The position numbers and the translations under genes were made by a program. A model generated the notes under the pieces. The model saw nothing but the letters and a program-made list of their open reading frames with translations, did no database searches and was not told the DNA's origin. Below are positions 40,709 to 40,885 of a DNA stretch of 64,000 nucleotides, piece after piece; the first letter of the stretch is position 1, and each line of letters starts with the position of its first letter. Where the stretch lies: NCBI RefSeq assembly GCF_056712565.1, contig NZ_CM160072.1; one strand, given 5' to 3'.

Positions 40709-40885
40709 AGTGAAACCAACCTTGCAAATACGGATTACCGGGAAAACCGGTCTATGATACTGTCCGGTTTATCACTTCGGGAGAAAGGCAGTCCGCCGCA
40801 TAAATCTACCATACAGGTTAGAACCCAAGGCCGGATACGGCATGCGGACTGCAGGCAGAGAAAACTGGCCGATTTTCTCTGCACT
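40709..40885 (-). ncRNA. IS621 bridge RNA (guide RNA of the IS110 recombinase), 177 nt
   Basis: Minus strand agtgcagagaaaatcggccagttttctctgcctgcagtccgcatgccgtatccggcc…ccggtaatccgtatttgcaaggttggtttcact ends at the recombinase ATG; length and sequence agree with the bridge RNA as I recall it; preceded by a TATTAT -10-like box. Confidence 0.6.

Follow-up and report, generated by a model that had tools for sequence, protein, structure and literature searches.

A retained IS621-type bridge RNA gene beside a frameshifted recombinase gene in B2-type Escherichia coli

Choi et al. reportedly devoted a 2003 paper to IS621 of Escherichia coli. As described in our two comparison sources (Durrant et al. 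2024, PMC11208160; Hiraizumi et al. 2024, PMC11208158), this element consists of a CT core, a 191-nt left end (LE) that contains a 177-nt bridge RNA (bRNA) gene, a recombinase gene, a right end (RE) of about 105 nt and a second CT core, a layout shared by the locus reported here. The IS621 promoter is assembled only when the excised element closes into a circle and RE meets LE, with the -35 box in RE and the -10 box in LE, and a donor without the -35 box gave no support for recombination in cis (Durrant et al. 2024, PMC11208160). Within the bRNA, the stem-loop of the donor-binding loop (DBL) contributes to assembly of the synaptic complex (Hiraizumi et al. 2024, PMC11208158). IS622 (ISCro4) of Citrobacter rodentium (bioRxiv 10.1101/2025.05.14.653916; PDB 9T56) is a close orthologue with the same bRNA architecture; it is active and more distant, with 88 % protein identity and 86.6 % bRNA identity to IS621, and its deep mutational scan covers the protein and not the RNA.

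Our literature search for 'orphan' bridge RNAs turned up only one case, the stand-alone ssr9 copies of ISPpu9 in Pseudomonas putida KT2440, which the accessible part of PMC12288879 describes as IS110-family small-RNA genes without an adjacent transposase. According to the same text ISPpu9 also targets REP sequences, but it is a different element with its RNA downstream of the transposase, and the genomes concerned hold intact ISPpu9, unlike the carriers of the element described below. REP targeting is already established for IS621 and for IS1397 (Clement et al. 1999, cited in PMC1525189), the other REP/BIME-specific insertion sequence of E. coli, which has an unrelated DDE transposase and no guide RNA and which occupies the same BIME as our element, 18 nt away.

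Here we describe an IS621-type relic in a 64-kb window (the whole stretch of DNA analysed) that belongs to an E. coli chromosome of B2 type. At 96 % nucleotide identity, the relic has the same donor guides, ends, -10 box and REP-tail target class as IS621. It departs from IS621 in its destroyed recombinase (two frameshifts, a 12-nt deletion and eight amino-acid changes), in position 4 of its left target guide (LTG; C not G), in the extension of its right target guide (RTG; AUG not UGC), in the private changes A89G and G133A, and in being single-copy and fixed in its lineage where IS621 is multi-copy. The locus is already known, both as a RefSeq pseudogene and through its presence in the dataset of Durrant et al.

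Anatomy of the relic and its bridge RNA gene

Canonical IS621 gave a single full-length blastn match in the window, at 96.2 % identity, which rules out a chance resemblance; beyond the relic, blastn found no further IS621 sequence in the 64 kb. Delimited by its flanking CT cores, the element occupies 40899-39638 on the minus strand; its length is 1262 nt, and that of two intact copies from other genomes is 1277 nt. Our references for the bRNA and the ends were those of Durrant et al. 2024 (Supplementary Table 1), and the canonical comparison copy was L003, whose encoded protein is identical to the published IS621 recombinase.

Read along the minus strand, the 23S and 5S rRNA genes of an rrn operon are followed by IS1397, a frameshifted IS110 pseudogene and kgtP, with the bRNA gene lying between the IS1397 copy and the IS110-family pseudogene. 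By synteny with K-12, we take this operon to be rrnG. The bRNA and recombinase genes are both on the minus strand, a point on which the initial annotation was silent. The 1311 bases around the locus are 100 % identical in UTI89, APEC O1, NU14, UM146 and many ST95 strains, and RefSeq labels the recombinase gene of UTI89 'IS110 family transposase, frameshifted'. The features of the element and its surroundings are the following.

40920-42350, minus strand: IS1397, a BIME-specific member of the IS3 family, oriented as the IS621 element is and separated by 18 nt from its left junction, on the upstream side; terminal repeats TGAACTGNACCCCAAA at both ends, with flanking GCA repeats
40902-40919, minus strand: remnant of the targeted REP palindromic unit, with the left target ATCCGAC at 40908-40902; the left flank reads ...GCCGCATCTTATCCGAC and then CT
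40900-40901, minus strand: CT core dinucleotide, left copy, the junction being the same as in canonical copies
40886-40899, minus strand: first 14 nt of the left end (TGTATTATCCCTCC), with the right-donor TGTAT and the -10 box TATTAT (40897-40892); identical to the published LE
40709-40885, minus strand: bridge RNA gene, 177 nt, 170/177 identical to the published IS621 bRNA with zero indels; it comprises a 5' stem-loop, the target-binding loop (TBL, nt 34-98) and the DBL (nt 110-177)
40797, minus strand: A89G, private, which turns U44-A89 in the TBL stem into a U.G wobble (from the bRNA alignment and pair map)
40753, minus strand: G133A, private, by which an A.C mismatch replaces G133-C154, the pair that closes the DBL stem-loop and the only one broken
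39742-40708, minus strand: IS621 recombinase pseudogene (from comparison with canonical L003, and RefSeq)
39638-39741, minus strand: right end, 104 nt, ending in the left donor ACAGTAT, with the -35 box TTGCTG at 39656-39651; five substitutions and one deletion relative to the published RE
39636-39637, minus strand: CT core, right copy, followed by the right target AC(GCT)

The initial annotation had read this stretch as an IS621-type bridge RNA with a TATTAT just upstream and with its differences confined to the interior of the RNA, and the comparison bears out all three points. The alignment to the published sequence is gap-free over its 177 positions. The seven differences (G53C, U74A, G75U, C76G, A89G, A108G and G133A) are interior, four of them in the target-binding loop, and position 108 belongs to the linker between TBL and DBL. 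TATTAT sits 6 nt before the bRNA 5' end, and the bRNA 3' end (40709) directly adjoins the recombinase start codon at 40708. Homology is argued here from the published bRNA sequence because a search of Rfam 15, at the gathering threshold and at E <= 10, returned no bridge RNA model matching the locus.

The substitutions were mapped onto a 42-pair bRNA structure written from the literature description, with region limits taken from the cryo-EM paper of Hiraizumi et al. The stem-loops are kept: 41 of the 42 pairs persist in the window bRNA, the sole loss being G133-C154. In an alignment of eight orthologous sequences (the window and seven relatives), 96.9 % of cells pair, versus 31-44 % with slid partners, and three pairs show compensatory changes. 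The conserved protein-contact nucleotides, namely the flipped bases A43, A67, A116 and A150, the syn bases G48, G72, G121 and G155, and the segment U142-C144, are all unchanged in the window bRNA, as are the handshake guides, the core of the right target guide and both donor guides. PMC13396178 reports an assay of a bRNA shortened by 2 bp at G133-G134. Taken at the level of predicted structure, the bRNA gene appears intact and barely damaged.

The cognate recombinase is indeed broken into three frames, as first proposed. Relative to L003 it carries a 1-nt deletion at 40392/40391 (codon 106), a second at 40063/40062 (codon 216) and a 12-nt deletion at 39873/39872 (codons 280-284). Each of the three homologous ORF pieces occupies a frame of its own, and with these deletions no intact recombinase ORF of about 326 aa is present. 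Over residues 1-108 the product is almost identical to PDB 8WT6, the IS621 recombinase (E = 1.7e-68), and the same N-terminal 108 residues match IS622 at E = 4e-50; the codons for the catalytic D11, E60, D102, D105 and S241 persist, not in one frame. We considered rescue by programmed frameshifting and rejected it, since two separate 1-nt deletions and a 12-nt deletion would have to be overcome; we know of no precedent for such a rescue in IS110 elements.

Guides, target preference and ancestry

The guides of the relic bRNA are located as follows.

40828-40836, minus strand: left target guide, bRNA nt 50-58, AUCCGGCCU, with C53 at 40833
40804-40812, minus strand: right target guide, nt 74-82, AUGGUAGAU; core GUAG and handshake AU unchanged, extension nt 74-76 (40812-40810) changed from canonical UGC to AUG
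40756-40763, minus strand: left donor guide (LDG), nt 123-130, ACAGUAUC, unchanged; matches the element's own right end ACAGTAT+C
40719-40729, minus strand: right donor guide (RDG) with handshake guide, nt 157-167, unchanged; the RDG reads AUUUGCAAGGU, as in canonical IS621

It had been suggested at the outset that target or donor specificity could differ from canonical IS621, and the guides point to a change in the first and none in the second. On the donor side, the element ends ACAGTAT|CT and CT|TGTAT are matched by the donor guides, and with LDG, RDG and both element ends identical to canonical the predicted donor specificity is the same. On the target side, the relic reads ATCCGGCCT where the canonical guide reads ATCGGGCCT. 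The reconstructed empty site, GTTCATGCCGCATCTTATCCGAC-CT-ACGCTCCC, is the tail of a REP unit. Against its left part, ATCCGACCT, the LTG AUCCGGCCU pairs by match at eight positions and by a G.T wobble at position 6, and the canonical LTG would be mismatched to this site at guide position 4. The RTG core GUAG matches CTAC at 4/4 positions, and the RTG extension matches the site at only 1/3. Guide and target correspond likewise in the orthologues L003, L016, L017 and L018. The target preference predicted for the relic would differ from canonical at one LTG position (4) and in the RTG extension. A search of both strands of the 64-kb window for ATCNGNCCTAC target sites found none, and the window therefore offers no further candidate IS621 target.

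Comparison with four intact relatives, namely an E. coli element with 92 % protein identity (L015), two copies from Superficieibacter and one from Pseudescherichia (together L016-L018), gives some indication of where the substitutions arose. C53 is common to the relic and all four relatives, and G108 is common to the relic and L015. Nucleotides 74-76 read UGC, UUU, AUU or AUG among the orthologues, which makes the guide extension hypervariable. Among the relatives compared, only G89 and A133 are private to the relic locus. Judged by this distribution, C53, with its target state ATCCGGCCT, is probably ancestral rather than a novelty, and it follows from its presence in intact relatives that canonical G53 is probably the derived state. 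The change to G53 would then have redirected the element naturally from ATCC-type REPs to those of ATCA/ATCG type. Canonical G53 wobble-pairs with ATCA-type REPs and with its usual ATCAGGCCTAC target.

Between the relic's coding sequence and the canonical one there are 15 synonymous and eight non-synonymous substitutions, for a dN/dS of roughly 0.2 (a rough estimate), and C49, H124, H132 and R146 make up the relic's amino-acid signature; this excess of synonymous changes indicates that most of the divergence arose while the recombinase was under purifying selection. These comparisons suggest that the relic is a descendant of a separate IS621 sub-lineage that was active before its inactivation, and not a rotted canonical copy.

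One of the relatives is itself unusual. In L015 (405-600; E. coli GCA_033390195.1), the 92 %-identity intact IS621-like element has the left junction ...AATCCAGTAA-AT-TGTATTAT, without a REP tail or CT core, and no ACAGTAT right end occurs in the roughly 600 nt after the gene. This insertion may be off-target or rearranged.

Copy number, conservation and decay

The 967-nt recombinase sequence matches 1692 records, and about 350 genomes carry the relic. We inspected 72 complete carrier genomes (the 60 best matches and 12 spread matches, including UTI89, APEC O1, IHE3034 and NU14), and in 72/72 the recombinase sequence occurs at one place only; every relic locus inspected is at the same rrnG-kgtP site. 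Other E. coli with IS621 carry it at a median of 8 places. For the earlier proposal of bRNA action in trans with intact copies at other sites, these carriers offer no partner.

The search for a close relative of the relic was likewise negative. Among E. coli complete genomes, identity falls from at least 99.8 % (the relic itself) to 96.7 % with nothing between, and no close intact sister was present among the sampled matches from 5426 complete genomes. In the protein database, the cluster of canonical IS621 came closest, at 96 %, although clustering at 90 % could hide a closer member. Four strings bearing the substitutions were found, in the accessible part of Supplementary Data 1 of Durrant et al., solely in the relic locus's own entry. 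Extra copies of the relic's sub-lineage gave no sign anywhere we searched.

Conservation of the bRNA gene was compared with that of the dead coding sequence across nine alleles. These alleles, which include UTI89-type, 536, LF82, ATCC 11775 and MS1266 and were picked partly for carrying differences, have one variable site in the 177 nt of the bRNA versus six in the 967 nt of the coding sequence (Fisher p = 1.0, with very low power at seven sites), so far as this goes indicating that the bRNA gene is no more conserved than the dead gene. The only bRNA polymorphism among them is U73C (window position 40813), found in 5/9 strains; it lies in a linker, next to the conserved syn-G72, and the allele is present in the dataset of Durrant et al. 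Indeed, the relic's exact empty site together with the U73C bRNA allele forms an entry in their Supplementary Data 1, the covariation input.

All three recombinase deletions are identical in the nine assemblies, which are independent and come from different lineages of B2 type, and every one of these elements is 1262 nt long. The lesions are therefore real and old, and the relic has been vertically inherited.

Further damage was seen in individual strains. In E. coli TUM13754 (L005, 3263-5216), an IS100 (IS21 family, istA/istB) splits the relic's recombinase pseudogene, and in strain SF-088 the relic is 5'-truncated; with this insertion and this truncation, decay of the relic is continuing. 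In two carriers, MS21199 and EC67 (L007 and L008), the annotation of kgtP, which follows the relic, shows an internal stop and classes the gene as a pseudogene.

A solo IS621 left-end fragment was found in E. coli ST131 strain 751 (NZ_CP103562.1; L014, 1501-1579), downstream of znuB. A REP half-site and CT are followed there by LE nt 1 to about 61, after which the fragment runs directly into a complete REP target, TTATCCGACCTAC; its LE portion corresponds to the bRNA 5' stem-loop and the 5' strand of the TBL stem. It looks like the product of a deletion or aberrant excision between the LTG-encoding DNA, a copy of the left target and core, and the right junction. Among 665 E. coli records no LE match is better than that of this fragment (93.7 %), which adjoins an IS1397. 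ST95-type genomes have two LE places, from which they probably also carry a solo left-end fragment.

Transcription and competing explanations

The TATTAT element had been put forward as a possible source of transcription, and this part of the initial annotation fared less well. The -10 box is real, but its natural -35 box lies in the right end: a virtual circle of the relic reads TTGCTG-17 nt-TATTAT, whereas the -35 position in the chromosome reads ATGCCG (2/6), and a consensus scan called no sigma-70 promoter at the bRNA in the chromosome. IS1397 has a promoter-like site at 42286-42258, and no terminator is predicted on the minus strand between the IS1397 transposase gene and the bRNA, so that read-through RNA into the bRNA is possible. 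From its position and orientation, IS1397 is the only plausible source of such read-through.

We consider the locus to be, with high probability, a dead element that belongs to a diverged IS621 sub-lineage and has been inherited vertically, its bRNA most likely silent or present in read-through only and functionless; the evidence thus favours the 'decaying relic' that was raised as an alternative from the start. In B2-type E. coli (ST95, 536, LF82, ATCC 11775) the element sits in the REP/BIME that separates the rrnG operon from kgtP. When active, its left end would have encoded a 177-nt bRNA working as in IS621, with the donor loop pairing with the element's own joined ends ACAGTAT-CT-TGTAT, the target loop pairing with the REP tail ATCCGxCCTAC, and the recombinase swapping strands at the CT core. 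Three deletions then destroyed the recombinase before the carrier lineages split, leaving in the chromosome a bRNA gene without a -35 box and without a recombinase to bind. We infer that this gene is most likely silent, or represented only within weak IS1397 read-through transcripts, and that it has no function. Its near-unchanged sequence would reflect its shortness and the little time elapsed, and not use.

Every guide and protein-contact nucleotide of the bRNA is intact, and judged by sequence it could still be a functional RNA; with its -10 box and both recombination ends also intact, the element would be mobilisable if a recombinase were supplied. One may therefore imagine a latent, trans-activatable, non-autonomous element in which orphan bRNA, made at low level from a -10-only promoter or by IS1397 read-through, is loaded by a canonical IS621 recombinase entering by plasmid or transfer. 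The relic could then be excised and re-inserted, or its ends could recombine with ATCCGGCCTAC-type REPs to give rearrangements. The intact LDG, RDG, ends and TBL guides are all compatible with this, as is the similarly oriented IS1397 with no predicted terminator in between, and published assays have bridge RNA working when supplied in trans (Durrant et al. 2024, PMC11208160); the 88 % identity of the IS621 and IS622 recombinases indicates how much alike close orthologues of this family stay, cross-use of bridge RNAs not being reported in the accessible part of the IS622 preprint. We nevertheless think this unlikely, given that a recombinase is found in 0/72 of the inspected carrier genomes, that the chromosomal context offers no -35 box, that the DBL stem-loop has lost its closing pair through G133A, and that the lack of extra sub-lineage copies leaves no evidence of mobilisation since inactivation. 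Decidedly unlikely, too, is a latent module whose low-level bRNA, probably of ancestral ATCCGGCCTAC specificity, is either loaded by a horizontally acquired recombinase or blocks incoming IS621. If it existed, the relic could be mobilised, or REP-to-relic rearrangements could arise beside rrnG in B2 pathogens, and a block on incoming IS621 would explain why carriers are without active copies.

That distribution (carriers without active IS621, versus a median of 8 places in other IS621-bearing E. coli), along with retention of the relic across many B2 lineages, could also be read as the mark of a domesticated small RNA that works independently of a recombinase, for instance by regulating kgtP or REP transcripts through its REP-like guides, or by blocking IS621. 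Phylogroup structure explains the mutually exclusive distribution more simply, and the whole dead element has been kept equally well, with bRNA and pseudogene equally variable; since moreover the scan calls no promoter for the bRNA and no precedent is known for the role, we regard domestication as highly improbable. As for the frameshifts, single-base deletions are a common type of assembly or sequencing error, and correcting them would restore an intact, active IS621 variant. The chance of this is negligible: the same three deletions recur in nine assemblies that were produced independently and by different technologies, each of them has the gene marked as frameshifted by RefSeq, and the element is single-copy in every carrier.

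Read as a dead, vertically inherited copy, the relic is otherwise ordinary and its significance mostly a matter of bookkeeping. It is an example of a bridge RNA gene persisting after loss of its recombinase, in a pathogen lineage that is well studied (UTI89, APEC O1, 536, LF82 and the type strain), and it provides a natural variant of the IS621 target guide, whose C53 matches ATCC-type REPs. Where UTI89-like strains serve as hosts for IS621 tools, the chromosome would appear to hold a donor-competent element and possibly an expressible bRNA, and background recombination could follow once a recombinase is supplied.

In the window's lineage this BIME holds two REP-specific insertion sequences, both of them dead. 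The neighbouring IS1397 is split in the window into more ORFs than the usual orfA/orfB, and it is annotated as frameshifted in LF82, ATCC 11775 and UTI89 (in the last as 'IS1397 family transposase, frameshifted'). At the same site in 536, MS1266 and TUM13754, IS1397 is annotated as intact with a programmed frameshift.
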